This document shows positions 6,369 to 63,669 of a stretch of DNA of 63,669 nt, piece by piece. The stretch lies in NCBI GenBank assembly GCA_964422865.1, contig CAYRCU010000003.1, forward strand, positions 1-63,669, given 5' to 3'. The position numbers and the translations under genes are program-made. Each line of letters starts with the position of its first letter. Position 1 is the stretch's first letter. The stretch comes from an uncultured Gammaproteobacteria bacterium. Its GTDB lineage: Bacteria > Patescibacteriota > Microgenomatia > UBA8517. Under the pieces are notes generated by a model that searched no databases, had not been told where the DNA came from, and saw nothing but the letters and a program-made list of their open reading frames with translations.

Positions 6369-6369
6369 A

Positions 6370-17197: not shown

Positions 17198-18085
17198 GTG
17201 AAAATCGATTTTATCGGTATAGGTGCAGAAAAATGTGCCACCAGATGGTTAGGAAAATGCCTCAGTGAGCATCCCGAGATCTGTTTAGGCAGGGAAAATG
17301 GTGGAAGTGAGCTGTTTTTCTTTAATGAATATGATCCCCATTTGTTAAAGATAAAAAACTCCAAGTATTATTGGGGCCTCAAGTGGTATTTAAAGCAATT
17401 TGACCACTGTCCGGCAAAGTCGGTCAAAGGAGAAATATCTCCAACATATTTATATAGCAAAGAAAGTGTAAAGCGAATAATAAAACATTTCCCGGAGGCC
17501 AAAATATTGGTTTGTTTGAGAGATCCAACCAAAAGAGCCCTTTCACAATACTTACATGACATAAAAATTGGAATTACGCTGCCGCTTGGTTTTGAAAGAG
17601 CCTTGAAAAAAAATAAAACTTACATAGAAAAAGGAAAATACTACAAATACTTAAAAGAATATTTGCATGCGTTTGGGAGTAAAAGAGTACATGTAATCCT
17701 GGTTGATGAAATTGAAAAAAACCCCAAAAAGGTTGTGAAAGAAGTATATAAATTTTTAAATCTAAAAAACACTGAATTTGAGCCTAAAAATTTACACAAA
17801 CGCACAAATGTGGCAAAAACGACCAAATTTCCTTTGTTAAATTACATCCTAATTCAAACAGAATATTTAATTAAAAGATACAATCTTTGGTGGCTACTGA
17901 AAATCTCAGACAATTTAGGTATCAGAAAGTGTGCCTTAAATGTTAGCCATAATATCAATACAAAACCATTCGAAAAATATCCCAAAATGAAAAGCAAGAC
18001 ACGAACATGGTTAAAGAGAAAGTATTTGAAGGATATAAATCAACTGGAAAAATTAATTAAAAAAGATTTAAGCACCTGGAAATAG
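17198..18085 (+). CDS. PAPS-dependent sulfotransferase domain protein
   Basis: DFIGIGAEKCATRWL (5'-PSB-like), KGEISPTY, LRDPTKRALSQY (3'-PB-like). GTG start. Confidence 0.9.
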   Translation: MKIDFIGIGAEKCATRWLGKCLSEHPEICLGRENGGSELFFFNEYDPHLLKIKNSKYYWGLKWYLKQFDHCPAKSVKGEISPTYLYSKESVKRIIKHFPEAKILVCLRDPTKRALSQYLHDIKIGITLPLGFERALKKNKTYIEKGKYYKYLKEYLHAFGSKRVHVILVDEIEKNPKKVVKEVYKFLNLKNTEFEPKNLHKRTNVAKTTKFPLLNYILIQTEYLIKRYNLWWLLKISDNLGIRKCALNVSHNINTKPFEKYPKMKSKTRTWLKRKYLKDINQLEKLIKKDLSTWK

Positions 18086-19731
18086 TGAAAAAAACATATT
18101 CGTATATATCCATATTGTTACCTGTTTTTTTAGTATTGCTATTGTTGCTTAGTTTTTTTAGAAATATAAAATATCCGCTTTTATGGAACGATGAGGCAAC
18201 AACAGCAGTATTTGCAAGAAGTGTATTAAGAAATGGTTACCCAAAGGCACACGACGAAAAAAATAATCTCAATCCCACAATTCCGGATGATAAAAGTCTT
18301 TGTATAAAAGAAGAAATAGATGCCTATCTGTGTATTGGCTGGGGACACTACTACCTGGCAGCACCCTTTGTCTATCTGGCCGACAAAACGAACGATCTAT
18401 ACACAAAAACAGCCCTTGTTAGATTCCCTTTCTCCTTACTGGCTTTTATGGCAATATTAATGTTTCCGTTAATTGCGTTAAAAGAAATTAAGTCCTTCTC
18501 GGGTAAAATACTTTTTTACAGTGGATTCTTGGTTTTTGAGCTGCTTTCGGTGTTTTTAGCACTTCACGCTTCTCAGGTGCGTTATTATTCTTTACTTTTG
18601 TTTTTGTCCGCTTTACTGATACTTATCTATTCTCGCTACAGAATTTTTGGAGGCAATAAACATCTTTATATTGTCTTAGTACCAATACTTTTAGTCTTAG
18701 TCTTTATAAGTTATTACCCTGCTTACGCGGTATTCATTATTACATTTATCTTGCAGGAGTTTTTGTTTTTTATGACAAAAAAGAACAAATTAAAAACTGG
18801 GCTTGCCCATGTGGGTCTAACACTGTCAAGTTTAATAATCACTCTTCCCTTAATGATATTCTTTGAAACTTTTAAAATCTCCAAAGAGTATTCAAATTAC
18901 TTAACAACAAATTTATATGGAGGAAAATATACACTCACCATGTATATAAAAAATCTCCTTTCGGTCTATGAATTTTTCTTCAAACAAGAATTCCTTTTTG
19001 TGCTTTTCATCCTAAAGATGCTATTGCTTTGGATCTTGTACAAAAAAGGAAAAGATAAAATAATAAAACTGCTTAGGGAAAACAAGTCCTTACAGATCTC
19101 AAATCTCCTAACCTTATTTTTTATAAACTACATTTTTATAGTGTCCCGAATTCCCTACCTCTTCACGCGTTATTTCTATATCGAGCAGCCCATTTTGTCC
19201 TTGATCATTTTAATAGACACAGTCTTAATAATAAATTTAACAAAACCCAAAAAAGACGCACTCAAAGCCTATGCAATTTATTTTGCTTCAATCCTAATTT
19301 TGTCAGGTGCATACAAAATACAAACTTTAAGATTATATTTCTATGAATTGACACACACATATAAAGGCCCACTGGATTATGCGATTGGTTATATACATAA
19401 AAACTATGAAGATCCAGAAAAATTAATTATTGCAACAAATTATGAAGAGCTTGCCTTTATTTTCTATCTAAACAGCAGGGTAATAATAGGCGCAGTTGGA
19501 AACGAACTGGAAAAGGACATGAAAATTGAACCGGACATTATTATCCCTCGAAAAGACTGGAAAAATATAGAATATTTAGAAGATTTGCTGGCCAAGGGGA
19601 CATATGAAAAAGTTTCTTTCCCAATTTATGATTACAAATTTAACAACATCTCCGAGCTTCAGTGGCACCTGTTTAAGACAAAGTATGCAACCAGCGATGA
19701 CGAAAAACTGACAATATACTTAAAGAAATGA
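18085..19731 (+). CDS. GT-C superfamily (ArnT/PMT-like) membrane glycosyltransferase
   Basis: TM1 then PLLWNDEA acidic loop, R.PF, QVRYYSL; many TMs and a soluble C-terminal domain. Confidence 0.7.
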   Translation: MKKTYSYISILLPVFLVLLLLLSFFRNIKYPLLWNDEATTAVFARSVLRNGYPKAHDEKNNLNPTIPDDKSLCIKEEIDAYLCIGWGHYYLAAPFVYLADKTNDLYTKTALVRFPFSLLAFMAILMFPLIALKEIKSFSGKILFYSGFLVFELLSVFLALHASQVRYYSLLLFLSALLILIYSRYRIFGGNKHLYIVLVPILLVLVFISYYPAYAVFIITFILQEFLFFMTKKNKLKTGLAHVGLTLSSLIITLPLMIFFETFKISKEYSNYLTTNLYGGKYTLTMYIKNLLSVYEFFFKQEFLFVLFILKMLLLWILYKKGKDKIIKLLRENKSLQISNLLTLFFINYIFIVSRIPYLFTRYFYIEQPILSLIILIDTVLIINLTKPKKDALKAYAIYFASILILSGAYKIQTLRLYFYELTHTYKGPLDYAIGYIHKNYEDPEKLIIATNYEELAFIFYLNSRVIIGAVGNELEKDMKIEPDIIIPRKDWKNIEYLEDLLAKGTYEKVSFPIYDYKFNNISELQWHLFKTKYATSDDEKLTIYLKK

Positions 19732-20504
19732 AAATCATAATTCTCATCCCTACTTACAATGAAAAAGAAAACATAGGAGATCTTCTGAAAGATATTATTA
19801 AAAAAATAAACAAAATAAAAAAACACAAATTCGAAGTGTTAATTGTTGACAGCAGATCCAAAGACGGAACAGTAGAAATAATAAAAAAATTCCAAAAGAA
19901 CCACAAAAACATACACTTAATTTTTGATAACAAAGAGGGATTGGGAAAAGCCATGATTCAGGGCTATTTACATGCAATAAAATCACTTAAAGCAGACGCC
20001 GTGATAACAAATGAAGCTGATTTTGCATTTGATTTCAAGCACCTTCCGTATATGATAAAAAGCCTTGAGGGGGGGAATGATGTAGTGGTTGGCTCCCGCC
20101 ATGTGGGCGTAGGAAAAACAGAAGGCTGGACTACAACAAGAATTATAAATCACTGGGTAGCAAACACTCTTTTTGCAACTTGGGTAGCGGGGGTACACGA
20201 AGTATACGACCACAACGGCGCTTTCCGCGCGATTAGAGTAAAAGGCATATTGGATAAAATCGACTTCAAAAATATCCCCGCAAAGGGCTTTGGTTTCTTT
20301 TTTTATTTTCTGTATGAACTTACAAAGCTAACGGATAAATTTGATGAATTTCCGGTAACCTACCGTTTTCGCAAAAAAGGGGAGTCCAAAGTATCTTTCA
20401 ATAAAAAATATATCAAAAGATATATACGCGACATTGCCGAATACATTTTTCTCGCTCTCTTGATAAGATTAAATAAGCTAACCTCATGGATCCAAAAAAA
20501 ATAA
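19728..20504 (+). CDS. GT2 polyprenol-phosphate-sugar synthase (DPM1-like)
   Basis: IPTYNEKEN, VDSRSKDGT, GLGKA, atypical NEADFAFD in place of DxD, VVVGSRH. Confidence 0.82.
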   Translation: MKIIILIPTYNEKENIGDLLKDIIKKINKIKKHKFEVLIVDSRSKDGTVEIIKKFQKNHKNIHLIFDNKEGLGKAMIQGYLHAIKSLKADAVITNEADFAFDFKHLPYMIKSLEGGNDVVVGSRHVGVGKTEGWTTTRIINHWVANTLFATWVAGVHEVYDHNGAFRAIRVKGILDKIDFKNIPAKGFGFFFYFLYELTKLTDKFDEFPVTYRFRKKGESKVSFNKKYIKRYIRDIAEYIFLALLIRLNKLTSWIQKK

Positions 20505-22036
20505 AATCCAAAGATTTAATTTATCTGGCGGCACTACTTATTCTCTTTGTAGCCTTAAGGTTCAATAGCTTCTCCGCTCCCTTCGAAAGAGACGAAGGAG
20601 AATACGCATATTCAGCATGGATCATGAGGAATGGAAGCATGCCCTATAAAAACGCCTTCCTTCAAAAGCCTCCCCTGATTATCTACACCTACATTTTCTC
20701 CCAGTTTCTTTCATCCACCGCTCTCTGGCCTCCGCGCCTCTTGGCCTCGATTTTCACACTTATTTCCACCTTTCTGGTGGCTCTCATTGCAAAATCTATC
20801 TTCGGAAAAAAGTACTTTTGGCCAACCGCATTGGTTTTTACTCCCATGATAATGCTTCCAACTCTCATGCCTTTTAGCGCCAACACGGAAATTTTCATGC
20901 TCACGCCTCTCCTGGGGTTTTTATATCTATACACAACTTCTCACCCAAATCCCAAAGCCTCTCGCCTTTTTCTTGCAGGAATTCTTTCCTCCCTTGCACT
21001 CCTATATAAACCGATTTGTCTGTATGTAATTGTTTTTATTTCTCTTCTTTGGGGCCGAAGCATCCTTAAATCTCAAAAAAGCCTACTTCATTCAGTTAAA
21101 CTACTCCTTTTTTTACTTTTAGGAGGAGCCGTGACTACACTCATAATTTTAGCTCCGTTTCTTCTTACCCAAACATTCAAAGACCTTTTTCAACAGGTAA
21201 TTGTTTTTAACGGATACTACGCCAAGTCCTGGGGTATTGGTCTTGGTGGAATCATCTTCCAGTTTTCAAGGATCCTAAAGTATTACTGGCCATTGGCTAT
21301 TGTTTCTCTTATCTTCTTCATAAACCCGCCCAAAAAATGGTGGCTCCCCTTGGGCCTTACATTCTCATCAATCCTTGCTATTTACCAAAGCTACATAGGT
21401 CACTATTATCTTCTTCTTATGCCTTTCTGGTCACTTATACTCTCCTACTCATTAGTCAAACTTTCAGGTTTCAAGGGACTGGCAAAAAGAAACGTTAAAC
21501 CCGAAGCATTAGTTGCCGTCGCTGTCATTACAATGCTTTTTCCCATCCGAGCCCAATTCACACATACCCCGGAAGAGCTAAATCTTTGGGTCTATGGTAC
21601 CGCAAACCCATTTTACGAAGCACCCCTTGTCGCCCGAAAACTTTCAGAAATCACAACCCCAACAGATCCGGTTTTTATTGCCGGATCCGAGCCCGAAATC
21701 CTTTTCTATGCAAAACGAATAAGTACGTCAAAATTTGTCATAACCTATCCCTTAATAATTGATACTCCAAAAAGGCTTGACTACCAAAAAGAAGCAATTC
21801 AGGAGCTAAAAAACAAGCCCCCTCAAGCAATAGTCCTTTCCCGACGTCAACACTCAGGCCTTTGGAATGAAGATAGCCCAAGAGAATTTATTGACTATCT
21901 TTTAAAAAGTATTAATAAAGATTACAATTTAATAGGATCATATGTTTGGATCAGAAACAAAGGGTATTGGCTTGAAGATCCGAAAGAAGAAGAATTAGCC
22001 GCAAGCAGTTTGATTTTATACAAAAAAAATGATTGA
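20486..22036 (+). CDS. GT-C (ArnT/PMT-like) glycosyltransferase
   Basis: PFERDEGEYAY, QKPPLI, ANTEIF, LYKP; polytopic with C-terminal soluble domain. Confidence 0.8.
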   Translation: MDPKKIKSKDLIYLAALLILFVALRFNSFSAPFERDEGEYAYSAWIMRNGSMPYKNAFLQKPPLIIYTYIFSQFLSSTALWPPRLLASIFTLISTFLVALIAKSIFGKKYFWPTALVFTPMIMLPTLMPFSANTEIFMLTPLLGFLYLYTTSHPNPKASRLFLAGILSSLALLYKPICLYVIVFISLLWGRSILKSQKSLLHSVKLLLFLLLGGAVTTLIILAPFLLTQTFKDLFQQVIVFNGYYAKSWGIGLGGIIFQFSRILKYYWPLAIVSLIFFINPPKKWWLPLGLTFSSILAIYQSYIGHYYLLLMPFWSLILSYSLVKLSGFKGLAKRNVKPEALVAVAVITMLFPIRAQFTHTPEELNLWVYGTANPFYEAPLVARKLSEITTPTDPVFIAGSEPEILFYAKRISTSKFVITYPLIIDTPKRLDYQKEAIQELKNKPPQAIVLSRRQHSGLWNEDSPREFIDYLLKSINKDYNLIGSYVWIRNKGYWLEDPKEEELAASSLILYKKND

Positions 22037-23642
22037 AAAACTTACAAAAGGCAAAAATCCTTACCTGGTTATTGCGTCTCTAATATTCTTGGTTTACTTC
22101 AGAAGCTTGTTTTTTAATTTTACATATCTTGACGACAACGTTTTGATCTTAGACAACATATTTTTCTTAAAGAACATCAACAACATCTCTAAAGCATTTC
22201 AGCTGGAAGTCTTTCATGTCCTTCATTCCTCAGCTGCATACTACCGCCCAATGCTTACGGTTTCTTTTATTTTTGATGCTCAACTTTCGGGAACCAACCC
22301 TTTTATGTATCATCTGACAAATATATTGATCCACATGGCAGTCTCATGTCTGCTTTTTCTTTTTTTAATTAAACTGGATTTGAGAAAAGATTTATCTCTC
22401 CTCTTTTCAGCCCTTTTTGCAGTTCACCCAACACTAACCCAGGCAGTAAGCTGGATACCCGGGAGAAACGACTCTCTCCTCGCGCTTTATCTTCTTTCTT
22501 CCTTTCTTTCCCTGCATTACTATCTTGAAACAAAAAAGAATAAATGGTTGGCCATGCACTCAATATTCTTCGCCCTGTCGGTTTTTACAAAAGAATCCGC
22601 CGTCATTTTTCCCGTATTCCTTGCCTATTATTTATTGGTCATAAAAAGAAAGCAGATGTTTTCAGGCAAACTTACCAATCTTTATGTCATTTGGCCATCC
22701 ATTGCTTTTGTCTGGTTTCTTATGCGCTCCTCTGCCCTCGTAAATCCGGTTGGGTATACCCCAATGAGTATAATTCAGACAATTACAAAAAACTCACCGG
22801 CCGTATTTCTTTTTTTAGGTAAAGTGTTTTTTCCGATAAATCTATCAGTGCTCCCCATATTGCAAGATTCAACGCTGGTTTATGGATTTGTCGCCAGCTT
22901 AATCATTTTTGTTCTGGCAATAATTTCCCGCAAGAATTACAAAACATCACTCTTTGGCTTAGCTTGGTTTTTTCTATTCCTTATTCCTTCATTCGTAAGA
23001 CCGTCTGACACATACACGGCGGATTTTATTGAACACAGAATCTATGTTCCCCTAATCGGCCTAATCATTTTTTTTCTAGTTAACCCCTTGGTGCAAAAAA
23101 TAAATCTTTCAAATAAAATTTACATAACATTTTTTTCCTTCCTAATTGTCATTTTCTCAGTCTTAACAATTATTCACTCGACCAATTTCTCAAATCCGAT
23201 CAATTTTTGGCAGAACGCAGTTAACACTTCTCCTCATCATCCGCTTGCCCAAAAAAACCTTGGCGCAATGTATTATCTTGACGGGGATCTTGACAAAGCG
23301 GAAAAATATTATCGCCAGGCACTTGAGCTTAATCCCGCTGAAACAATGGTTCACAACAATCTTGCGGTAATATACCTTGACAAAAAAGACTTTCAAAACG
23401 CGCTCAAAGAACTTGATGAGGAAATAAAAATAAATCCTCTTTACGATAAGGCCCACTATAACTACGGCCTTGTTTACTGGACGCTGGGCGAGAAAGAAAA
23501 AGCGGAAAAATCTTGGTTAAAAACTTTGGAAATTAATCCTAATCACACAACAGCTCTCTACAACCTTGCTGTCTATTACAAAGAAATTGGAGAAATAGAA
23601 AAGTCAAACTACATCCTTGCTATTTTAAAACAGAAAACATAG
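22029..23642 (+). CDS. TMTC-like GT-C protein O-glycosyltransferase with C-terminal TPRs
   Basis: FTYLDD, YYRPM, HPTLTQAVSWIPGRND, KESA, EHRIYVP, then about four TPR repeats. Confidence 0.82.
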   Translation: MIEKLTKGKNPYLVIASLIFLVYFRSLFFNFTYLDDNVLILDNIFFLKNINNISKAFQLEVFHVLHSSAAYYRPMLTVSFIFDAQLSGTNPFMYHLTNILIHMAVSCLLFLFLIKLDLRKDLSLLFSALFAVHPTLTQAVSWIPGRNDSLLALYLLSSFLSLHYYLETKKNKWLAMHSIFFALSVFTKESAVIFPVFLAYYLLVIKRKQMFSGKLTNLYVIWPSIAFVWFLMRSSALVNPVGYTPMSIIQTITKNSPAVFLFLGKVFFPINLSVLPILQDSTLVYGFVASLIIFVLAIISRKNYKTSLFGLAWFFLFLIPSFVRPSDTYTADFIEHRIYVPLIGLIIFFLVNPLVQKINLSNKIYITFFSFLIVIFSVLTIIHSTNFSNPINFWQNAVNTSPHHPLAQKNLGAMYYLDGDLDKAEKYYRQALELNPAETMVHNNLAVIYLDKKDFQNALKELDEEIKINPLYDKAHYNYGLVYWTLGEKEKAEKSWLKTLEINPNHTTALYNLAVYYKEIGEIEKSNYILAILKQKT

Positions 23643-23651
23643 TATTAAACC

Positions 23652-24809
23652 ATGGCTGATTTGCCCAAAATTGTGATCATAATGCCCACCTACAATGAGG
23701 CAAAAAATATTGGTCCCATGATAGAGGAGCTTGTGGGAAAGGTATTTCCCAAAATAAAAGGTGCTGACATGCACCTTCTTATTGTTGACGATAATTCTCC
23801 GGATGGCACGGGAAGCATTGTCAATAAATATATGGAAAAATTCAAAAATCTACACCTTCTTTCAGGTCAAAAACAAAAAGAAGGGCTCGGTAAGGCATAT
23901 GCCAGAGGCATGAAGCATGCTATGCATAAGCTCAGGGCAGATGCAGTCATGGAAATGGACAGCGATTTTCAACACAATCCCGAGGAAGTCCCCGCAATGG
24001 TTAAGGCTTATCTCGATGGGGCAGACTACGTAATAGGAGCACGTTACATAAAAGGCGGCTCAATCCCCAAGGCCTGGCCGCTTTCAAGAAAGATGATGAG
24101 TTTTTTCGGGAACCTCTTTATTAGAATTGTTCTTATTAAACCCAAATTGCACGATCTTACAACAGGTTTCCGTTTAACAAAAGTAAAGGGTGTTTTAGAT
24201 CAAATCGACCTGGACAACTTGATGGAGATTAAGCGCTTTGCCTACAAAGTTGATCTTCTCAATCAAACAGTAGCTCTCTCAAAAAAAGTTACAGAAGTGC
24301 CCATTCACTTTGGTGAGCGGAAGATGGAAACAAGCAAATTCAATCTCAAGGAACTTGTTGCAACCTTTAAAGTAGCAATTGTTATTAGATTAAAGGAGTC
24401 TCAAAGATTTATTAAATTCGGCACAGTCGGGTTCATAGGATATCTTGTAAACGCAATAAGCCTCCACTACATAGCAAGAACAGGTGTCCCGGAAGCCGTC
24501 GCCTGGGCAGGCTCCACCGAATTGGCAATCATCTCAAATTTCACCCTGAATAATATCTGGACATTCAAAAGTGAAAAAATATCGGGAATAGGGAAACTTG
24601 TAAATAAATTCATTCAATTTAACGGCACTTCTCTGGGCGCTCTTGTTATCCAAACCGTTGCGGGGTCCATCGGCGTATCAATGCTGGGGCAAGAATACAG
24701 GCAAATCCTCCTTCCGTTTATAGTTGTCTTCTTGGTTCTTCCCTATAACTATCTTGCCTACAACCTTGTTATTTGGCGCACGTGGCGTCTTCCGGGAAAA
24801 CGCAAGTAA
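23652..24809 (+). CDS. GT2 polyprenol-phosphate-sugar synthase fused to a C-terminal GtrA-like flippase domain
   Basis: MPTYNEA, VDDNSPDGT, GLGKAY, MDSDFQHNP, then RFIKFGTVG...SNFTLNNIWTF...KFIQF 4-TM GtrA signature. Confidence 0.88.
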   Translation: MADLPKIVIIMPTYNEAKNIGPMIEELVGKVFPKIKGADMHLLIVDDNSPDGTGSIVNKYMEKFKNLHLLSGQKQKEGLGKAYARGMKHAMHKLRADAVMEMDSDFQHNPEEVPAMVKAYLDGADYVIGARYIKGGSIPKAWPLSRKMMSFFGNLFIRIVLIKPKLHDLTTGFRLTKVKGVLDQIDLDNLMEIKRFAYKVDLLNQTVALSKKVTEVPIHFGERKMETSKFNLKELVATFKVAIVIRLKESQRFIKFGTVGFIGYLVNAISLHYIARTGVPEAVAWAGSTELAIISNFTLNNIWTFKSEKISGIGKLVNKFIQFNGTSLGALVIQTVAGSIGVSMLGQEYRQILLPFIVVFLVLPYNYLAYNLVIWRTWRLPGKRK

Positions 24810-24878
24810 GATTTTATACGGCTCTTGCCCACAAAACGGGACTGTTTGAGAGACATTAGTATTGTATAATATGGGTTC

Positions 24879-25968: not shown

Positions 25969-26018
25969 ACCGGGAAATATACACCAACTACGCTCTCAAG
26001 CTCTCTCAACCTTCAAAA

Positions 26019-27176: not shown

Positions 27177-27231
27177 ATGAATCCATATTATATCTTTAGA
27201 AGATAAATACTCAAGTCTTGTGGTGAACATA

Positions 27232-27240
27232 TGTTAAACT
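27232..27240 (+). promoter_or_regulatory. extended -10 element TGTTAAACT, 6 nt before ATG 27247
   Basis: TGnTAnnnT directly before an SD-less start. Confidence 0.5.
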
Positions 27241-27246
27241 TTCTCT

Positions 27247-27963: not shown

Positions 27964-27998
27964 AGCAATATTTTGATGTGTCATTCTGATTAAATGCC

Positions 27999-33543: not shown

Positions 33544-33605
33544 AAATTGCAGCGAATAGCACAATTGAAAATTGCAGCGAATAGCACAATTGAAAATTGC
33601 AGCGA
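33536..33605. repeat. 25-bp tandem repeat, about 2.8 copies, beginning in the upstream stop codon
   Basis: ACAATTGAAAATTGCAGCGAATAGC at 33536-33560 and 33561-33585, partial at 33586-33605. Each unit has a CAATT-GAA-AATTG hairpin. Confidence 0.95.
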
Positions 33606-33641
33606 TCGGCTATACTAAATAGTAGTAGAATTATCTTTCCA

Positions 33642-45554: not shown

Positions 45555-45567
45555 GACAAAGCGCGCA

Positions 45568-54497: not shown

Positions 54498-54500
54498 AAA

Positions 54501-56183
54501 GTGAAAAGCAAAAGAACTGTTCTTGTTATTATTCTTCTACTATCCTCGCTTCTTCGTCTTTGGAAACTATCAAGCGTTCCTGTCTCACTTTTTGGGGACG
54601 AACTGGATGTTGGGTATCATGCTTATTCGGTGCTAAAGACAGGCAAAGACTACTACGGAAACTTCATGCCTCTTCACTTTCATTCCCTTGCCGAATACAG
54701 AACCCCGCTTTATCTTTATACCGCTGTACCAACCGTCGCACTTTTTGGAATCTCTCCGCTTGGGGTTCGCCTCCCTGCGGCAATCTTTGGAATTTTGGGA
54801 GTTTGGGTGTTGTATCTAATGGTCAAAGAGCTTTTCAAAAACGAAAATTTGGCTCTTATTTCTTCATTTGTTTTAGCCATTTCTCCTTGGCACATTCAGT
54901 ATTCTCGAGCGGCGTTTGAAGTAACTCAACTTTTGTTCTTTCTTCTCTTGGGGATCCTTTTATTCTTCAAATCTTTCAAAAAAAGCAACCTACTTTGGCT
55001 TTCTGTCTCAAGTTTTCTTCTTATGCCCTGGGTATATAGCTCCGCCAAGCTTTTTACACCCTTCTTGTTAGCCTCTCTCTTTATTTTTTATTTCAAAAAG
55101 ATTACAGCTTTTCCCAAAAAACATCTAATCCACGCCGCTATTGCAGGCATTGTCATTGGAGGACCTCTTATAATAAACATTCTTTTCGGCGGAGGAGCAC
55201 AGCGCTTTGGCTACATAGGGGTCTTTACCAACCCGTCTACAGAACATGAAGTAGGGGTAGCAAGATTAAATGATGCAAAAATGCGGGGAGAATCGGGCAC
55301 GGGAATCAGTCCGAGGATAGATGATAGATTTCTTCACAATAAATACGTATTTTGGGCAGAAAACATAATCTCAAATTATCTTCAGGCATTTTCAACAGAT
55401 TTTCTTTTCATAAAAGGTGATCCGAATCCGCGCCACTCAATTATAGGTATGGGACAGTTATACAGAGTAGAAATATTAGCCTTGGCACTGGGAATTATCT
55501 ACTTCTTCTCATCAAGGGAAAACAGAAAATTAAAGCTATTAATAGCCTTCTGGATACTTGCCGGAGTAATCCCCTCATCCATAACCCGGGATGGAGGAAA
55601 TCATGCCACACGCCTGATTCTCATCCTTCCGCCACTGATATTTCTAGTTTCATACGGAATCTACAAAATGAATAAACTTTTACTGGTAATCTACTTTCTT
55701 CTTCTCCTTATTAACTTCCTTTTCTATCAGCATAAATTTTGGATCCACAATCCCTGGCAAAGTGAAAGATGGTGGCACTCAGGCTATAAAGAAGCAATAA
55801 CCTACATTAAAGAAAACCAGCAAAATTACGACAACATTGTAATTTCGACCGCAGGAGAACCTCCCTGGATTTTCTTTGCCGCACATTACCAATATCCGCC
55901 TCAAAAATGGCACAGTGAGTTTCCGATAGGCAACGATGTGACCCTAGAAGGATTCGGGAAAATAAGCCACACAGGCAAATTCTACTTTGGCTCTCCGCAA
56001 GTAGATGGATTATATTCCTGGGGACAAGTTATTGATAACAAAACATTGTATCTGGCAACAGAAAAGGAAGTAAACGTGAATTTAATACTGGAGCCCAATA
56101 GAACCCCGTCCGACCTCGTTCTTCTTAAAAGCATCCCCTTCCCATCGGGAGAACCCGCCCTATACATATTTACAGGAAAGTGA
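54501..56183 (+). CDS. GT-C glycosyltransferase (DE..GY.AYS.LKTG family)
   Basis: LFGDELDVGYHAYSVLKTGKDYYG, SPWHIQYSRAAFE. Confidence 0.85.
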   Translation: MKSKRTVLVIILLLSSLLRLWKLSSVPVSLFGDELDVGYHAYSVLKTGKDYYGNFMPLHFHSLAEYRTPLYLYTAVPTVALFGISPLGVRLPAAIFGILGVWVLYLMVKELFKNENLALISSFVLAISPWHIQYSRAAFEVTQLLFFLLLGILLFFKSFKKSNLLWLSVSSFLLMPWVYSSAKLFTPFLLASLFIFYFKKITAFPKKHLIHAAIAGIVIGGPLIINILFGGGAQRFGYIGVFTNPSTEHEVGVARLNDAKMRGESGTGISPRIDDRFLHNKYVFWAENIISNYLQAFSTDFLFIKGDPNPRHSIIGMGQLYRVEILALALGIIYFFSSRENRKLKLLIAFWILAGVIPSSITRDGGNHATRLILILPPLIFLVSYGIYKMNKLLLVIYFLLLLINFLFYQHKFWIHNPWQSERWWHSGYKEAITYIKENQQNYDNIVISTAGEPPWIFFAAHYQYPPQKWHSEFPIGNDVTLEGFGKISHTGKFYFGSPQVDGLYSWGQVIDNKTLYLATEKEVNVNLILEPNRTPSDLVLLKSIPFPSGEPALYIFTGK

Positions 56184-57439: not shown

Positions 57440-57442
57440 AGT

Positions 57443-57451
57443 TGATATAAT
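57443..57451 (+). promoter_or_regulatory. extended -10 element TGATATAAT, 5 nt before ATG 57457
   Basis: Perfect TGnTATAAT in a 17-bp gap. Confidence 0.6.
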
Positions 57452-57456
57452 AATTC

Positions 57457-59097
57457 ATGCACAAAAAACTTCTCTTTGGAGTATTACTTCTTGCACTGCT
57501 TATTCGATTAATCGGCCTATCAAACCATCCCTCGGGCTTCACTCCGGATGAAGCATCCTTTGGTTACGATGCATATTCAATCATAAAAACCGGCAGGGAT
57601 CAGTGGGGCAACACCCTTCCTCTCTCCTTCAAATCATTTGGTGACGGGAAGCTCCCTTTGTACACGTATTTGGCAATTCCTTCCGTGGCCGCATTCGGCC
57701 TGAACGAATTTGCCGTCCGCTTCCCAAATGCAATTCTTGGCTCTTTTGCAGTTCTTGTTGTGTATTTTCTTGTTCTGGAAAGCCTGAAAGACAAAAAAAC
57801 AGCTCTTCTATCTGCTTTTCTTCTTGCTATTTCCCCCTGGCACATTCCCATGTCCCGCGGCGCCTTTGAAGCAAATCTAACAACTTTTCTTCTACCACTG
57901 GCAATCCTTACTTTTATTAAAGGCACCAAGAATTCAAAATATTTTATACTCTCAGCTATCTTTTTCGGATTTAATCTTTTTACATATCACTCCGCTCGCT
58001 TAATAACTCCCCTTATTTTCTTGTTTTTATTTTTCTCATCTAGAAAAAAAATAAAGTTTAATCTTCACACTAAAACAGCAATAATCCTGCTGAGTATTTT
58101 TGTCCTTTTAACAGCCTATACATATTTAGGTGGAGCAGGCTCTCGCTTAAGTTCAGTTAGTATTTTAAGCCTATCATCTCAGGCGGGCCCGGATCGCTAT
58201 AACGCCGTCATGGTTGGCCTGCCCGATATTTTTGCAAGGCTTTTTAACAACAAAGCAACAAAGCTTTTTTCCATTTTTACATCAAACTATCTTTCATACT
58301 TCTCTCCGCAATTTCTTTTCACCCAGGGTCCTGCGGAAGGAACATACGGAATGCTTCCGGGAAGGGGAGTGCTATATCTTACTGAAGCGCTTTTTATACT
58401 GGGATTTTTCTGGATGCTGGTACTAAAAAGGTTCAAAATCCCCTCATGGCTCATTTTTTGGCTGCTGGTGTCTCCAATTCCCGCGGCACTTTCAATCGGC
58501 CCGGGTTATGCCGCAAATAGAGCCACCATCATGATGCCGGCAATCCAAATTATCGCGTCTCTGGGCCTGATTTTTTTGCTCACAAAATTCACCAGATACA
58601 AAAAATTTCTCATCCTCACCTTTTCCTTTCTTTTAATTTTTGAATTTGTGTTTTTTGGGGAGGATTATTTTATTCAACAGCCTGCTCAAAGATCAAAGGA
58701 TATGATCTACGGAGCACTTGAAGTTGCAAATTTTTTGGAATCCGTTGAAGATCAATACGATCACATAATTATTTCAAAAAGTATCTCCGAAGCACATATT
58801 TTTATAGCCTTCACCAAAAAGATGGACCCCACTCTTTATCAAAAAGAGGCTAAAAATTGGGATTTTGATAAACAGGGCCTAAAATGGGTCGACCAAATGC
58901 CGATCTACTCGCTCGGAAAATATACCTTTAAATCCCTGGACTGGAAAAACGATTCCAGAATTCCCGGCATTCTTGCTGTAGGCCGACCTGAAGAGTTTCC
59001 CGAGAACACAGTTTCGGAGAAGAAAATCTATTATCCAAATAGCAAAGAAGCCTTTTGGATCGTCTCAAACTTAACTAAAGTTTTTGCGCAAAAATGA
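57457..59097 (+). CDS. GT-C glycosyltransferase (same paralog family)
   Basis: FTPDEASFGYDAYSIIKTGRDQWG, SPWHIPMSRGAFEAN. Confidence 0.85.
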   Translation: MHKKLLFGVLLLALLIRLIGLSNHPSGFTPDEASFGYDAYSIIKTGRDQWGNTLPLSFKSFGDGKLPLYTYLAIPSVAAFGLNEFAVRFPNAILGSFAVLVVYFLVLESLKDKKTALLSAFLLAISPWHIPMSRGAFEANLTTFLLPLAILTFIKGTKNSKYFILSAIFFGFNLFTYHSARLITPLIFLFLFFSSRKKIKFNLHTKTAIILLSIFVLLTAYTYLGGAGSRLSSVSILSLSSQAGPDRYNAVMVGLPDIFARLFNNKATKLFSIFTSNYLSYFSPQFLFTQGPAEGTYGMLPGRGVLYLTEALFILGFFWMLVLKRFKIPSWLIFWLLVSPIPAALSIGPGYAANRATIMMPAIQIIASLGLIFLLTKFTRYKKFLILTFSFLLIFEFVFFGEDYFIQQPAQRSKDMIYGALEVANFLESVEDQYDHIIISKSISEAHIFIAFTKKMDPTLYQKEAKNWDFDKQGLKWVDQMPIYSLGKYTFKSLDWKNDSRIPGILAVGRPEEFPENTVSEKKIYYPNSKEAFWIVSNLTKVFAQK

Positions 59098-60767
59098 AAA
59101 CAAACTTAGCCTTACTTTTGATAGTTCTTTTTGCGTTTTTTTTAAGAATTTATCAAATTTCGTCAAATCCCACCTCTCTTAATTGGGATGAGGTAAGTCA
59201 TGGCTACAATGCATATTCAATCATAAAAACCGGCAAAGACGAATGGGGGGAACATCTTCCGACAATCTTTAAAGCATACGGAGATTACAAACTCCCCGTG
59301 TATATTTATGTGACAGCAGCCTCAACAATAATTTTTGGTGTCAATGAGTTCTCAGTCCGTTTTCCTTCGGTTTTGGCGGGCACTTTTAGTGTGCTTTTTA
59401 CTTTTTTTCTCGCAGAAAAACTCCTAAATAGCAAAAAAACAGCTCTAATTGCCGGTTTTCTTGTAGCAATTGAACCCTGGTCACTCTTTTTATCTCGCGG
59501 TGCCTTTGAAGCAAATTTAGCACTCTTTCTCTTTATTTCCGGATTCTACTTATTTCTTGAAGGGCTTACTCGGAAAAATTGGAGAATACTGGTAGGAATT
59601 GTTCTTTTGGGTCTTACAGTTTGGACATATAATTCTTATCGCATCTTTACTCCGCTCTTGATAATTGCCGCTGCCACTATCTACAAAGATGAACTTCTCG
59701 AAATGCTGAAAGCCAAAAAAATCTTGAGTAGTGGATCTGTCATATTGCTGATGATTTTTATTCTCCCCATGTTTTTTCAACTATTAAGTCCTGCAGGACA
59801 GGCACGTTTTAGTTGGGTTTCAATTATAGATCAGGGAGCCATTGAAAAAATAATCAGTCTCAGAAGAAGCTCCAACTTTAGCCCATTGTTGACAAGATTT
59901 ATTTATAACCGCCCTATTTACTTTTTTGTAAACTTTATTAAAAACTATACCTCTCACTTTTCCCCGTCTTTCTTATTTCTCAAGGGCGGAAGTCACCATC
60001 AGTTTAACATTCCCGATTTCGGATTGTTATATCTTATCAATCTCCCGCTTATAATCCTCGGGCTTTACTCTCTAATGACAAAGAAGACAAAAAATTCAAA
60101 GTTAATCTTACTTTGGATCCTTCTGTCTCCAATACCTTCAAGCCTAACTCGCCAAGCCCCGCACACACTTAGAAACATCACCACGCTTCCCATCCCCATG
60201 ATTTTAGCTGCGCTGGGACTTAAATATTCTCTCAACAAGCACAAACCATCAAGGTTAAGAATTTCACCTATCCCAATTTATATACTTATTCTTCTTGGAT
60301 TTTTAACAAGCTACCTTAGTGTTTACTTTGTTTCTTACAAGCATAAATACTCTCAAGCTTGGCAGTTTGGTTACAAAGAAGTGGCCAAAATAATCGAAGA
60401 AAAATATGATAATTACGACAAAATATTAATAACAAAAAAATATGGTGAGCCGCACGAGTTCATTCTCTTTTACAACGCTGCCTCAAGTTCTGCTCAATGG
60501 GCACAACCGGAAAAATTCCAAAATGACCCCAATCTTATTCGTTTTCGGCAAACAAACTGGTTTTGGGTAGATCGTTTCGATAAGTTCTACTTTCTAAATG
60601 ATTGGGACATAAAAGATCTCAAGCTTGAAAGTGGGGGAGAAGTAGATTGTCATAAACTCAAATGTCTCCTTATTTCAACGCCCAACAATCATCCAAATTC
60701 CTGGGAACTAACAGATTCAATTGAATTTCTCGATAAAAAAACAGCTTTTGAAATATATGAAAATTAA
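59094..60767 (+). CDS. GT-C glycosyltransferase (same paralog family)
   Basis: LNWDEVSHGYNAYSIIKTGKDEWG, EPWSLFLSRGAFEAN. Confidence 0.85.
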   Translation: MKTNLALLLIVLFAFFLRIYQISSNPTSLNWDEVSHGYNAYSIIKTGKDEWGEHLPTIFKAYGDYKLPVYIYVTAASTIIFGVNEFSVRFPSVLAGTFSVLFTFFLAEKLLNSKKTALIAGFLVAIEPWSLFLSRGAFEANLALFLFISGFYLFLEGLTRKNWRILVGIVLLGLTVWTYNSYRIFTPLLIIAAATIYKDELLEMLKAKKILSSGSVILLMIFILPMFFQLLSPAGQARFSWVSIIDQGAIEKIISLRRSSNFSPLLTRFIYNRPIYFFVNFIKNYTSHFSPSFLFLKGGSHHQFNIPDFGLLYLINLPLIILGLYSLMTKKTKNSKLILLWILLSPIPSSLTRQAPHTLRNITTLPIPMILAALGLKYSLNKHKPSRLRISPIPIYILILLGFLTSYLSVYFVSYKHKYSQAWQFGYKEVAKIIEEKYDNYDKILITKKYGEPHEFILFYNAASSSAQWAQPEKFQNDPNLIRFRQTNWFWVDRFDKFYFLNDWDIKDLKLESGGEVDCHKLKCLLISTPNNHPNSWELTDSIEFLDKKTAFEIYEN

Positions 60768-62379
60768 CAATAAGGCAGTAAAACTACTTATCCTATCTAT
60801 AATTTTTGCAATAGCAGCAATATTGCGTATTTATAAACTTAGTAGTATACCTCCGCACTTAACTCCAGATGAAGCATCTATTGGTTACAACGCGTATTCA
60901 ATCTTAAAAACCGGACGAGATGAATACGGAACCCTGTTCCCATTAATTTTTAAATCCTTCGGCGATCATAAACCGGGCCTCTATATTTACGCAACTATTC
61001 CATCGGTTGCTGTTTTTGGTCTTAATGAATTTGCCGTCCGTTTTCCTTCAATGCTGGCAGGATTATCCGCAATTTATTTATTGTATTTAGTAGTCAACGA
61101 ACTTTTTGCAAATAAAAAATTAGGGACAATCTCTGCAATCGTACTTGCATTTTCCCCTTGGCATATATATTTCTCAAGAGGAGCTTGGGAGGCAAACCTG
61201 GCCCTCACCTTAACACTTGCCGGAATATATTTCTTTTTAAAATCTTTAAAACAAGAAAAACATCTCATCTTTTCAGCAATTTTTTTTGCGCTAACACTAA
61301 TTGCATATCAAGGGGCAAAAATGTCATCACTCATTGTGTTGGTTATCTTGTTTTTATTACATTTGAAAGAACTTGCAAAACTTAATCGATCAATTTTTTT
61401 TACATCTCTGGCAATTGGTTTAGTTATCTCATCTTCGGCCATTATGGCCTTCTTTCAGGAAAAAACTGGACGCTTAGAAGTTTTTAACATATTCTTCTAC
61501 CCCAGATCTAAAGAATACCTGGAAACTTTTTTGAAAGAAGGAAACGAAAAGGTCGGAACACTTACTTATTATTTATATCATTCGGAACCCCTCAACTTTA
61601 TACGAGGAATTCTTGGTCGCTGGTTTAATCATTTTTCGGGGAGATTCTTGTTTTTTGAAGGCGACTACTCAAATCTTCGTCACTCTTCTCCTTACCAAGG
61701 CGTTATGCTCTACACCGATGTAATCTTTTTAATTCTGGGTTTAGCTTCAGTTTTTAGGGAGAAAATATCAAAGCCTGTTGCCTTCGTCTTACTTTGGCTT
61801 GTTTTTTCCCCTCTGCCGTCAGCTCTGTCTCGCGACCAAGTGCACGCAATAAGATCCTTAAACATGGTGGTTCCTCTGGTTATCCTGGTTTCCCTGGGAG
61901 TCTATAAAGTAGTAAACTCAAAAAAACTATACAGCAAACTATTGCTTCCTATTGGTGTTATTAGTTTTATATATTTTGCCGAATCATATTTTATGCAGCT
62001 TCCGCATCTTAGATCACAGTATTGGTATTATGGACACAAACAAGTTGTCCGGAAAATTGCGCAAAATCAAAGCACCTACAACCAAATTATCTTTCAACAG
62101 TCCTTTGATCAACCATATATCTTTTTTCTGTTTTTTCAAAAATACGATCCGCGCAGATATCAAAAAAACTCACGCCTGATTCAAAATTCAGCGGATGTCG
62201 GAGTTGTAGAAAAATTAGATAACATCCACTTCACTGAGATAAACTGGAGTAACGACAAGGAAAAATCAAACACCCTAATTATCGGCCCACCGACAAAAAT
62301 TCCACAAGATGTTGATGCAGAAGAAGTGAAATATTTAAACGGCATAATCACTGCCTTTAGAATCTATAGTACGAAATGA
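60757..62379 (+). CDS. GT-C glycosyltransferase (same paralog family)
   Basis: LTPDEASIGYNAYSILKTGRDEYG, SPWHIYFSRGAWEAN. ATG 60757 preferred. Confidence 0.85.
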   Translation: MKINNKAVKLLILSIIFAIAAILRIYKLSSIPPHLTPDEASIGYNAYSILKTGRDEYGTLFPLIFKSFGDHKPGLYIYATIPSVAVFGLNEFAVRFPSMLAGLSAIYLLYLVVNELFANKKLGTISAIVLAFSPWHIYFSRGAWEANLALTLTLAGIYFFLKSLKQEKHLIFSAIFFALTLIAYQGAKMSSLIVLVILFLLHLKELAKLNRSIFFTSLAIGLVISSSAIMAFFQEKTGRLEVFNIFFYPRSKEYLETFLKEGNEKVGTLTYYLYHSEPLNFIRGILGRWFNHFSGRFLFFEGDYSNLRHSSPYQGVMLYTDVIFLILGLASVFREKISKPVAFVLLWLVFSPLPSALSRDQVHAIRSLNMVVPLVILVSLGVYKVVNSKKLYSKLLLPIGVISFIYFAESYFMQLPHLRSQYWYYGHKQVVRKIAQNQSTYNQIIFQQSFDQPYIFFLFFQKYDPRRYQKNSRLIQNSADVGVVEKLDNIHFTEINWSNDKEKSNTLIIGPPTKIPQDVDAEEVKYLNGIITAFRIYSTK

Positions 62380-63669
62380 AAAATAAAATCTTACTTATCG
62401 CAATAATTGTTCTTGGTTTTACACTTCGTGTTTATAAAATAAATTCACTTCCGGCTTTAAATGCAGACGAAGCATCAATAGCTTACAACGCCTATTCACT
62501 GCTAAAAACCGGTCGTGATGAACACGGAAACTTCTTGCCAATTCATTTTCAGTCCTTTAACGATTACAAGCCCGGCGGATATTTTTATCTGGTATTGCCG
62601 TTTGTTAAATTGTTTGGCCTAAGTGTTTACTCTGTCCGTCTCCCCGGCATTATTTTAAGCACACTTACAATTTTTGCAATCTATCTTTTAACAACAGAGC
62701 TTTTTACAAAAAAACTGGGACTGACAGCAGCTCTGTTTTTGGCAATTTCCCCATGGCACATTCACTTTTCTCGGGGTGCCTGGGAGGTGAGTGCAGCAAC
62801 CTTTTTTATGACAACAGGTCTCTGGGCTTTTCTCAAAGCTCAAAAATCTCCAAGAAGATACTACTTACTTTCCGCCGTTTTCTTTGTGTTTTCTTTGTAC
62901 ACCTATCACGCGGCTCGTGTTGTAGTTCCTCTCTTGGGCGCAAGCCTTTTTGTTATCTACCGAAAAGCTTTAATCAAATCCACAAGATACGTCGTCGTTG
63001 CAGGTTTGGTGGGCTTTATCATCTTGCTTCCTTTAGCGGGAGATTTACTCGGGGCGGCAGGAATTTCCCGTGCGGCAGGCGTCGGGCTTTTTGCCGATCC
63101 CGGCACGGTTAATCGCATAAATGAACAAAGGGGAACATACAAAAATTTTCAAGGGATAGTGCCCAAACTTTTTCACAATAAAGTTTCAAACTATACCTTC
63201 GCTTTTCTTGAAAACTGGGCGGAGCATTTTCATGGGGAATTTCTTTTCCTTTCGGGTGACAAGATCCAAAGAAACAAGGTGCCGGAAACCGGGCAGTTGT
63301 ACCTTTTTGAGATAATAACTCTTCTTGTTGGCCTCGCAGCCATTGCAAAAAAACCAAAAAACTGGTCTCCAATATTGCTCTGGTTGATATTCGCCCCTAT
63401 TCCTGCGGCTCTTACTTTTCAGTCCCCCCATGCACTCCGCGCCCAAAACATGGTTATTCCCATTACCATTATCTCCGCCTTTGGAGCAGTTGCAATAATC
63501 ACATATATTCAAAAAAACATTAAAAAACAAAGCCTTCGGGCAACTCTTTATATGTTTTTAATTTTTGTTTTTTCTGTGAATATCGCAAGATACTTTCATA
63601 TGTACTATGTTCATATGGCCAAAGAATACCCCTATTCTTCACAATATGGCTTAAAAGAAGTAGTTACAT
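62376..63669 (+). CDS. GT-C glycosyltransferase (same paralog family), truncated by the window end; absent from the ORF track
   Basis: ATGA overlap at 62376-62379. My translation: MKNKILLIAIIVLGFTLRVYKINSLPALNADEASIAYNAYSLLKTGRDEHG... The same frame reads ...MAKEYPYSSQYGLKEVVT at the edge. Confidence 0.88.
   Translation, partial: MKNKILLIAIIVLGFTLRVYKINSLPALNADEASIAYNAYSLLKTGRDEHGNFLPIHFQSFNDYKPGGYFYLVLPFVKLFGLSVYSVRLPGIILSTLTIFAIYLLTTELFTKKLGLTAALFLAISPWHIHFSRGAWEVSAATFFMTTGLWAFLKAQKSPRRYYLLSAVFFVFSLYTYHAARVVVPLLGASLFVIYRKALIKSTRYVVVAGLVGFIILLPLAGDLLGAAGISRAAGVGLFADPGTVNRINEQRGTYKNFQGIVPKLFHNKVSNYTFAFLENWAEHFHGEFLFLSGDKIQRNKVPETGQLYLFEIITLLVGLAAIAKKPKNWSPILLWLIFAPIPAALTFQSPHALRAQNMVIPITIISAFGAVAIITYIQKNIKKQSLRATLYMFLIFVFSVNIARYFHMYYVHMAKEYPYSSQYGLKEVVT

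Follow-up and report, generated by a model that had tools for sequence, protein, structure and literature searches.

A 36-gene block at positions 17198-63669 of the 63,669-nt contig CAYRCU010000003.1 (this whole stretch being the window) combines 20 polytopic glycosyltransferases of the GT-C type (GT-Cs) with four GT2 glycosyltransferases resembling polyprenyl-phosphate-sugar synthases, a Wzx flippase and a run of soluble glycosyltransferases. We regard it as reasonably probable that 23652-63669, together with several kb beyond the window end, forms the core of a conserved Microgenomates super-operon for a cell-envelope glycan, a hybrid assembly line in which a lipid-linked oligosaccharide made in the cytoplasm would meet GT-Cs acting on the outer face. 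This reading starts from direct observations of gene content, folds, family membership, packing, conserved gene order and borders. As the initial annotation had proposed, the coexistence of few synthase-like GT2s with many GT-Cs supports a locus devoted to extracytoplasmic glycosylation.

Gene content and packing

The genes are labelled g01 to g36 in window order (Table 1), and their content was resolved by open reading frame (ORF) listing and gene-by-gene scans against Pfam and NCBIfam. They cover 46,347 of the 46,472 bases of the block, with 33 of the 36 on the plus strand, and the tight coupling described at the outset is reflected in overlaps at 22 of the 35 junctions, the other gaps measuring at most 69 bp with one exception. 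The inventory includes 20 GT-Cs, four synthase-like GT2s, five soluble GT2s, one GT4, one Wzx, one methyltransferase, one sulfotransferase, one phosphoesterase and one GtrA/DPMS (dolichol-phosphate-mannose synthase) domain. Gene-by-gene checking thereby confirmed the earlier counts of about 20 polytopic proteins, of four DPM1/ALG5-like GT2s and of the accompanying Wzx, soluble GT2s, GT4, sulfotransferase and methyltransferase. Since the upstream 17 kb of the window contain no GT-C at all, the clustering is not due to chance.

That the island continues beyond the window, as had been noted, is evident from g36, which opens with an ATG at 62376 and whose frame stays open to position 63669. A reading of 62380-63669 (1.3 kb) as non-coding was rejected on account of this ATG and the open PMT_2 frame. 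Rfam and tRNA scans of the window were empty.

Assignment of the GT-Cs

The GT-C-type set consists of g02, g04, g05, g08, g10, g12, g13, g15-g18, g21, g26, g27 and g31-g36, of which 13 of the 20 reach a Pfam gathering score: g10, g12, g13, g15, g18, g27, g31 and g33-g36 for PMT_2 and/or PMT, g16 for PTPS_related and g26 for YfhO, the last being the YfhO-like member that had been anticipated. With 25.5 bits each, g04 and g05 lie 0.6 bit under the PMT_2 cut-off of 26.1. All 20 proteins show 5-10 strong transmembrane (TM) segments in a crude hydropathy scan and are polytopic as expected of the GT-C superfamily (about 8-13 TM helices). The acidic motif reported for the first loop was recovered after the first TM segment as two residues (DE, DD, DQ or HD) in 17 of the 20 and as a single Asp in g08, g26 and g32.

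All-against-all BLAST resolves a paralogue family A (g18, g31, g33-g36; 26-35% identity) and a family B (g10, g12, g13, g27; 25-29% identity), the GT-Cs outside these families being singletons. Acidic residues are invariant in the family alignments, namely D50/E51 in family A, D52 in g21, D36/E37 in g02 and D69 in g08. Profile-profile comparison (hhalign), which used orthologues from related loci and Wzx as negative control, connects family A with family B at 94-98% and g16 with the YfhO protein g26 at 98-99%; g15, g17 and g32 match family A at 93-95% and g04 at 64%, while the Wzx control stays at or below 1% against everything. A weak EpsG match of g17 is sub-threshold. Among solved structures the family-A profile is nearest, weakly, to ArnT (E 4e-4); single-sequence searches with g35 and g21 and a search with the g08 profile found no match among them.

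Pfam Alg6_Alg8, GT87 and Arabinose_trans matched no window protein, and the TMTC-, ALG6- and GT87-like labels of the initial annotation were not substantiated by any family match. Its PIG-V-like label is upheld only indirectly, by the names of g08 homologues and by a Mannosyl_trans2 protein downstream of the g36 orthologue in the relative L004. NCBIfam gives no equivalog-level name for any GT2, GT4 or GT-C, so that sugar specificities are not assignable. These GT-Cs are predicted to use polyprenyl-(pyro)phosphate-linked sugar donors.

Family membership equally bears on the proposal that family A, family B and the other PMT/PMT_2-type enzymes are protein O-glycosyltransferases whose paralogues differ in protein substrate and not in linkage, with secreted or surface proteins such as pilins, S-layer proteins and adhesins as targets. 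Five proteins (g15, g31, g33, g34 and g35, with 34.4, 37.7, 38.7, 44.6 and 31.2 bits) pass the 22.7-bit cut-off set for Pfam PMT, the N-terminal protein O-mannosyltransferase domain; g05 combines a GT-C with TPR as the eukaryotic TMTC O-mannosyltransferases do, a resemblance in architecture with no match to a TMTC-specific Pfam model; and genes for pili and surface proteins are found further upstream in the window. On the other hand, family A and g15 have no Pfam match to MIR or PMT_4TMC at E < 0.01, ArnT, the closest solved structure by profile, is a lipid A transferase, PMT_2 proteins have many non-protein acceptors, and nothing ties the island to particular target proteins. We consider protein O-glycosylation as the common function unlikely.

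A truncated GT-C paralogue, as initially annotated, could not be identified. Considered as a truncated GT-C, g19 was rejected, as BLAST, hhalign and shuffled Smith-Waterman comparison gave no similarity, and the short g32 is full length as in the relatives, its orthologues measuring 404-428 aa. The g19 protein has hydrophobic ends and a soluble middle; in the loci of several relatives its gene immediately precedes that of a g18-like GT-C, so that it may be a dedicated partner subunit of these enzymes.

GT-Cs without a family model

Three member families, g02, g08 and g21, are without a family model. Structure prediction with AlphaFold2 (AF2) agrees with the proposed GT-C nature for both of the Pfam-less proteins that were modelled, g02 and g21, each of which appears as a helical bundle with a C-terminal globular domain. 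The condition under which the initial annotation would have fallen, namely that most of the proteins prove not to be GT-C folds, is thus contradicted by these two models.

Judged from its model (pLDDT 94.7, pTM 0.93), g02 is a GT-C fold nearest to ALG12/ALG9: Foldseek places ALG12 (9s6t_A, E 3e-6) first, followed by STT3A, ALG9, ArnT, Pmt4 and PglB, GT-Cs being the only significant structural matches. Besides the acidic pair, W34 is invariant in the family alignment. The 196 homologues, 33-47% identical among the matches listed with the exception of a single near-identical copy, are scattered over Paceibacteria, Margulisbacteria, Syntrophales and Bacteroidetes.

The model of g21 (pLDDT 84.8, pTM 0.88) likewise indicates a GT-C fold, nearest to STT3/PglB/AglB. 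STT3 chains are the top Foldseek matches (E about 1e-8, TM-score 0.55), with DPY19, PglB, AglB, AftA, AftD and ALG12 among the further ones, and the AglB C-terminal domain matches separately. In Pfam, including its STT3 family, g21 has no match at all. At least 1578 homologues were found, 54-66% identical among the matches listed, and every named one is called hypothetical. In related loci they follow the Wzx gene, with one gene in between in L082. Other lineages encode proteins 1000-1160 aa long (e.g. P0362, P0366, P0381, P0383, P0401) whose C-terminal half is the g21-like GT-C and whose N-terminal half is conserved, begins with a hydrophobic signal-peptide-like N-terminus and has no Pfam model; one database protein of 1639 aa is a fusion of Wzx, that N-terminal domain and the g21-like domain. 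As the fusion-partner domain has no homologue in the window, it is uninformative for this locus.

For g08 at least 2232 homologues were found, 59-67% identical among the matches listed. JGI names many of them 'Gpi18-like mannosyltransferase'. Pfam does not match g08 itself, and PMT_2 is matched by 10 of 35 close homologues; the NCBIfam AZOBR_p60025 glycopolymer family is hit at E 1.6e-12, under its cut-off.

Conservation of gene order

When the family-A alignment was used to scan the representative genomes of GTDB, at least 587 relatives were identified, of which the best 80 loci were compared by searching the ORFs of 21-kb spans with the window proteins. Almost all of these 80 loci stem from metagenome-assembled genomes (MAGs) of the Microgenomates group of the Candidate Phyla Radiation (CPR), Candidatus Woesebacteria being closest (51-55% identical to g35) and Shapiro-, Collier- and Amesbacteria coming next. 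In the 44 loci with a full 21-kb span, the number of GT-C genes has a median of 8 and reaches 11 at most. The order g31-g32-g33-(g16)-g34-g35-g36-GT2-...-synthase recurs among the loci, and g34-g35-g36 are collinear in 68 of the 80.

Other parts of the block are covered by relatives retrieved with g21 and g08. In L082, found via g21, the window order from g14 to g31 is repeated. The left end is reproduced in L083-L085, found via g08, where RNaseH-like/Rml genes and TrmD precede the DPMS gene, which is followed by g08 on the opposite strand and then by GT2 - PMT_2 - phosphoesterase - PMT_2 - GT2 - PMT - PTPS_related. In the Woesebacteria genome DeMMO6_57 the block extends on one contig from about 326 kb to at least 375 kb, seen as two pieces with 15 kb between them uncovered. 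Downstream of g36 the relatives encode a GT2, a GT4, a PIG-V-like GT-C (Pfam Mannosyl_trans2 E 1.5e-8 in L004), a second Wzx-type flippase, another DPM1-like GT2, and GT4 or epimerase genes, and by this comparison a second module of flippase and GT-C would lie beyond the window end, cut off.

Paralogues within the window are 25-35% identical, whereas positional orthologues across candidate phyla are 34-55% identical; the paralogues being less alike than the positional orthologues, the duplications are old and each copy has been kept separately. As judged from these loci, the array is routine and old in the Microgenomates lineage. The initial annotation had considered such arrays uncharacterised, and no functional description of them was found in the literature searched.

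The host is supported by these sequence affinities as a Woesebacteria-like CPR bacterium of the Microgenomates, in line with the CPR host suggested before, and its genome is probably under 1 Mb in size; two complete chromosomes among the closest relatives measure 0.6 and 0.8 Mb. Many small-genome MAGs with this CPR-type array (L003-L007 and others) bear the title 'uncultured Gammaproteobacteria', almost certainly a wrong label entered by default in the deposited records. Of the 31 two-kb bins of the whole window, 28 have a negative GC skew, and nearly all island genes lie on the plus strand; unusual compositional disparity between strands has been named in the title of a report on a complete Microgenomates genome (PMC7143001).

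A variable module at the left border

Between TrmD and the DPMS gene g06 lie 7.4 kb (16242-23651) that are absent at this place in L083-L085: the two genes are immediate neighbours in L083 and L085 and are separated by one Yip1 gene in L084. The GC content of the insertion is 0.364 (0.33 for g01 and g02), compared with about 0.40 elsewhere. The insertion relative to relatives, the low GC content and the scattered distribution of the g02 family together suggest horizontal acquisition, and the segment looks like a strain-specific, acquired add-on with a sulfotransferase, three GT-Cs and a synthase. At the position of g07, relatives have nothing or a 59-aa ORF.

A dense, strain-variable glycocalyx had been proposed as the product, and the island could in principle be a diversity generator serving, for example, host attachment or phage evasion. 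The inserts between TrmD and the DPMS gene do differ (g01-g05, Yip1 or nothing), and extra GT-Cs, mostly g16-, g32- and family-A-like, vary between loci. However, core order and one-to-one positional orthology are kept in the 68 loci mentioned above, the paralogues are old without recent expansion, and the homologues of g08 and g21 among the matches listed share about 54-67% identity with them. We consider such a role very improbable for the core. From the comparison of loci, variability looks confined to 16242-23651 and the core looks like a fixed, ancient pathway; an array that is routine in relatives and strongly collinear argues against the core as the source of a variable glycocalyx, of which idea the left-hand module is the part that stood.

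Synthase-like GT2s, flippase and soluble enzymes

By BLAST, g03, g06, g09 and g14 form one GT2 group. Residues 6-368 of g06, which matches Pfam GT2 and GtrA_DPMS_TM, align to residues 24-365 of the Pyrococcus DPMS (5mlz_A, E 1.7e-40), and by this similarity g06 is a DPMS-type polyprenyl-phosphate hexose synthase with the GT2 domain fused to a GtrA/DPMS TM domain. The single GtrA domain noted previously is thus present once, but the full-length match identifies it as the built-in membrane domain of the synthase and not as a separate flippase. No stand-alone GtrA gene is present in the island, where almost no free intergenic space is left. Consisting of the catalytic domain, g03 is assigned through its similarity to g06 (35% identity over 260 aa). 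In the PDB, g09 is best matched by DPMS (5mlz), GtrB (5ekp) and ArnC (E about 1e-13), and g14 by GtrB (5ekp, E 5e-14) and DPMS (E 7e-13). The Wzx/MOP assignment of g20 is based on Polysacc_synt_3 with 196.8 bits (E 6e-58).

The phosphoesterase g11 probably starts near position 29535; a 338-aa gene is called at its position in L001. Its slot between two PMT_2 genes is occupied by a PHP-family phosphoesterase here and by a DHH/DHHA1 phosphoesterase in three relatives, which looks, from the family matches, like non-orthologous displacement. Both families include nanoRNases and phosphatases of 3'-phosphoadenosine 5'-phosphate (pAp), and pAp is the by-product of 3'-phosphoadenosine 5'-phosphosulfate (PAPS)-dependent sulfotransferases such as g01.

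Just outside the island, a nucleotidyltransferase (14455..15540) probably supplies nucleoside-diphosphate (NDP)-sugars, as its family would suggest, and NTP_transferase/Rml genes are found on the same TrmD side in L083-L085. The neighbourhood CAP - RNaseH-like - sugar-nucleotide genes - TrmD is syntenic with relatives. Further upstream, positions 1-13604 of the window encode type IV pilus components (PilM, pseudopilins with N_methyl motif), a CAP-domain protein, a surface protein that carries CarboxypepD_reg/SpaA-like domains, a fused aconitase-family protein, an HMGL-like synthase and a response regulator alongside a GAF histidine kinase.

Table 1. Coordinates of the genes of the glycosylation island, its left border and related features in other loci.
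Feature	Position	Strand	Evidence or remark
Sugar-1-phosphate nucleotidyltransferase (NTP_transferase + LbH)	14455..15540	+	NTP_transferase E 2.4e-41; just outside island
TrmD, left border	15552..16241	-	Pfam tRNA_m1G_MT E 4e-64
Two small ORFs	16071-17062		no family match
Variable insertion: two small ORFs and g01-g05	16242..23651	+
g01, cytoplasmic PAPS-type sulfotransferase	17198..18085	+	Sulfotransfer_1 E 3e-17; no TM
g02, GT-C, no Pfam model	18085..19731	+	AF2 and Foldseek
g03, DPM1-like GT2, no TM	19728..20504	+	Glycos_transf_2 E 2e-24
g04, GT-C, PMT_2-like	20486..22036	+	DE motif at residue 36
g05, GT-C with C-terminal TPR	22029..23642	+	TPR_1/TPR_2 E about 1e-20; DD motif
g06, DPMS-type synthase, first conserved-core gene	23652..24809	+	GT2 + GtrA_DPMS_TM
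g07, soluble, 288 aa	24879..25745	+	no Pfam/NCBIfam match
g08, GT-C-like, highly conserved	26019..27230	-	homologues
g09, DPM1/GtrB/ArnC-like GT2, no TM anchor	27247..27963	+	PDB matches
g10, GT-C family B	27999..29534	+	PMT_2 57 bits
g11, PHP-family phosphoesterase	29356..30543	+	NCBIfam RNase RNM / 3',5'-nucleoside bisphosphate phosphatase E about 1e-22, under cut-offs
g12, GT-C family B	30543..32075	+	PMT_2 38.4 bits
g13, GT-C family B	32062..33543	+	PMT_2 32.9 bits
g14, DPM1/GtrB-like GT2, no TM anchor	33597..34388	+	PDB matches
g15, GT-C (PMT/PMT_2)	34385..35944	+	PMT_2 44.2, PMT 34.4 bits
g16, GT-C, PTPS_related, akin to YfhO	35978..37717	+	PF10131 44.9 bits
g17, GT-C-like polytopic	37702..39141	+	hhalign family A 95%; BLAST to g36 E 1e-8
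g18, GT-C family A	39138..40775	-	PMT_2 26.1 bits; 26-29% identical to g31-g36
g19, small membrane protein, 219 aa	40762..41421	-	no family match
g20, Wzx/MOP lipid-linked glycan flippase	41458..42945	+	Polysacc_synt_3
g21, GT-C, no Pfam model, very conserved	42902..44596	+	AF2 and Foldseek
g22, g23, g24, soluble GT2s	44655..47252	+	Glycos_transf_2; no TM
g25, GT4	47239..48273	+	Glycos_transf_1 E 2e-25
g26, YfhO-family GT-C	48236..50599	+	PF09586 103.2 bits, cut-off 28.5
g27, GT-C family B	50596..52119	+	PMT_2 30.1 bits
g28, S-adenosylmethionine-dependent methyltransferase	52116..52778	+	Methyltransf_11 E 8e-23; same position in L082
g29, g30, soluble GT2s	52786..54497	+	Pfam GT2
g31, GT-C family A	54501..56183	+	PMT 37.7, PMT_2 37.9 bits
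g32, short GT-C, 419 aa	56180..57439	+	PMT_2 20.4 bits; hhalign g35 93-94%
g33, g34, g35, GT-Cs family A	57457..62379	+	PMT_2 44-48, PMT 31-45 bits
g36, GT-C family A, cut by window end	62376..63669	+	PMT_2 48.5 bits; orthologues about 550 aa
PIG-V-like GT-C with adjacent second Wzx-type flippase and DPM1-like GT2	L004 15161-17574; L006 16192-18584
DHH/DHHA1 phosphoesterase in the g11 slot	L083 6693-7685; L084 6781-7767; L085 6733-7728

Proposed pathway and alternatives

For the assembly line that we favour, the donors, the flipping route, a step-by-step build-up of one shared product and the kind of acceptor are inferred as follows. On the cytoplasmic face, g03, g06, g09 and g14 would charge polyprenyl phosphate with single sugars, while g22-g25, g29 and g30 would assemble an oligosaccharide on a lipid carrier, and g28 and g01 may tailor the product. 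The lipid-linked species would cross the membrane via g20, possibly also via the GtrA-like domain of g06. For a lipid-phosphate sugar, a MOP-type flippase in a three-component system provides a precedent (PMC11127046), and by analogy MOP/Wzx-type proteins are an equally plausible export route for such donors. On the outer face, g21 would handle the flipped glycan, a placement suggested by its position behind the flippase gene, its strong conservation, its STT3-like fold and the single-chain Wzx-g21-like protein. About 19 further GT-Cs, representing at least eight old subfamilies in fixed positions, would add single sugars or branches there from the few lipid-phosphate-sugar donors. The shared product may be one conserved envelope glycoconjugate, either a polysaccharide anchored in the wall or the membrane, or glycans carried by surface proteins.

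Several findings weigh against this assembly line. No GT2 reaches an NCBIfam equivalog cut-off, the scores of g03, g09 and g14 being far under it, and these three are devoid of a membrane anchor such as the C-terminal TM helices of GtrB and ArnC. Each of them directly precedes a GT-C (g03 before g04, g09 before g10, g14 before g15). A phosphoglycosyltransferase, a Wzy polymerase and a chain-length regulator (Wzz) were not found in the scanned window ORFs, none of which matches Bac_transf, Glycos_transf_4, Wzy_C or O-antigen-ligase. Of the 20 GT-C assignments, that of g08 is the weakest, being derived from homologues and the names given to them in the source. A search of sequencing runs for the sequence returned three DNA runs and no RNA run. 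Finally, the WWD of the sequon-binding motif WWDYG is present neither in g21 nor in 40 aligned homologues.

The pairing of anchor-less synthase and GT-C fits separate donor/transferase pairs as well as one assembly line. The block could accordingly be a juxtaposition of independent decoration modules of synthase and GT-C with different acceptors (surface proteins, peptidoglycan, teichoic-acid-like polymers, membrane lipids) and no common product. In Firmicutes and Proteobacteria, enzymes of the YfhO and PMT_2 types each decorate on their own, the Gtr paradigm being covered in PMC11127046; a GT-C is the next gene after every anchor-less synthase, and g01-g05 have been inserted as a self-contained unit. 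Difficult to reconcile with independent modules are the ratio of 20 GT-Cs to four synthases, the run of six family-A paralogues uninterrupted by any synthase, and the collinearity of the whole block across Microgenomates, unusual for accessory units. Independent modules are the main rival, conceivable at a rather low probability.

A further candidate is a counterpart of the pathway in the endoplasmic reticulum (ER), in which a lipid-linked oligosaccharide, made by the GT2 and GT4 enzymes in the cytoplasm and flipped by Wzx, would be extended outside by a fixed series of GT-Cs supplied with DPMS-type lipid-phosphate sugars and transferred en bloc to protein or wall acceptors by g21, which would represent a new CPR-wide GT-C family. 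If true, ultra-small bacteria would possess an operon-encoded, independently organised parallel to the N-glycosylation of eukaryotes and archaea. Being without WWDYG and without membership in the STT3 family, g21 has not been filed as an oligosaccharyltransferase, and we rate en bloc transfer as improbable.

Comparison with known systems

For the favoured assembly line, the closest bacterial analogue is the mycobacterial and corynebacterial assembly of lipomannan/lipoarabinomannan (LM/LAM), phosphatidylinositol mannosides (PIM) and arabinogalactan (PimE, MptA/B/C, EmbA/B/C, AftA-D, Pmt), where, as would by analogy apply here, one or two polyprenyl-phosphate-sugar donors produced at the cytoplasmic face serve many GT-Cs that elongate and branch a conserved envelope glycoconjugate outside (PMC13223929). 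Some mycobacterial synthases have no membrane anchor of their own either (Ppm1 catalytic domain), and the mycobacterial AftA and AftD are among the structural matches of g21, as ALG12 is for g21 and g02. In mycobacteria most of the GT-C genes are spread across a 4-Mb genome, and no more than about four stand side by side, while at least 20 collinear GT-Cs, comprising PMT_2, YfhO, PTPS_related and three unmodelled families, form one block here. The rule of one synthase, one flippase and one GT-C on which the initial annotation relied overlooks that in mycobacteria polyprenyl-phosphomannose (PPM) and decaprenyl-phosphoarabinose (DPA) each feed several GT-Cs (PMC13223929).

With the ER-lumenal ALG/PIG/PMT/STT3 steps the island shares a DPMS-type synthase (g06) alongside many GT-Cs, a g02 fold near ALG12/ALG9, a g21 fold near STT3 and g08 relatives named Gpi18/PIG-V-like. 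The ER systems (ALG3/9/12, ALG6/8/10, PIG-V/M/B, PMTs, STT3) are fed by DPM1 and ALG5. In contrast to them, the island is a bacterial operon, and the resemblance is at the level of fold, at 9-14% identity, with no ALG/PIG/STT3 sequence membership; the ER-like assembly line initially suggested is putative.

The logic of synthase, flippase and GT-C is common to the three-component systems GtrA/GtrB/GtrC, CsbB-GtcA-YfhO, GacI/J/L and the pentofuranose systems (PMC11127046), to which the YfhO-family g26 and the GtrB-like GT2s add a likeness in components. Unlike Gtr systems, the island has 20 GT-Cs for four synthases and no stand-alone GtrA, the GtrA-type domain being fused in g06, and unlike the Gtr serotype converters, which are accessory or phage-borne, the block belongs to the conserved core genome. 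As in Wzx/Wzy loci, a large polytopic protein comes after Wzx, and soluble GT2/GT4 enzymes in series and tailoring enzymes come behind it, but a phosphoglycosyltransferase, a Wzy_C/O-antigen-ligase protein and Wzz were not found in the window, and the fold of g21 is that of a GT-C and not of a Wzy.

Significance

While the logic of lipid-phosphate sugar and GT-C is known, scale, collinearity and phyletic conservation of the array are not known from the literature searched. No description of multi-GT-C arrays in CPR bacteria was found in the full-text literature, in which subscription papers are thinly covered so that absence is not proof. Key papers on Patescibacteria make no mention of glycosyltransferases or glycosylation, with a putative machinery for exopolysaccharide (EPS) biosynthesis noted in one, and the one mention found, a single line on '29 genes of glycosyl transferases', concerns a Microgenomates genome (PMC7143001). 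The array points to a complex surface glycan of extracytoplasmic origin that has not yet been described.

The island would make up about 6-8% of the genome if the true size is 0.6-0.8 Mb. Its number of GT-Cs about equals the inventory of the whole yeast or Mycobacterium tuberculosis genome, and such organisms are thought to live attached to other cells, with most biosynthesis shed. Such heavy investment, with gene order kept across Microgenomates, suggests a product that is central to the envelope and probably to host contact. The collinear layout offers a compact parts list of old GT-C subfamilies and their likely donor synthases, which can be assayed individually, and the logic of many GT-Cs supplied from few donors, familiar from mycobacteria and the ER, would be present in a third, very different lineage.

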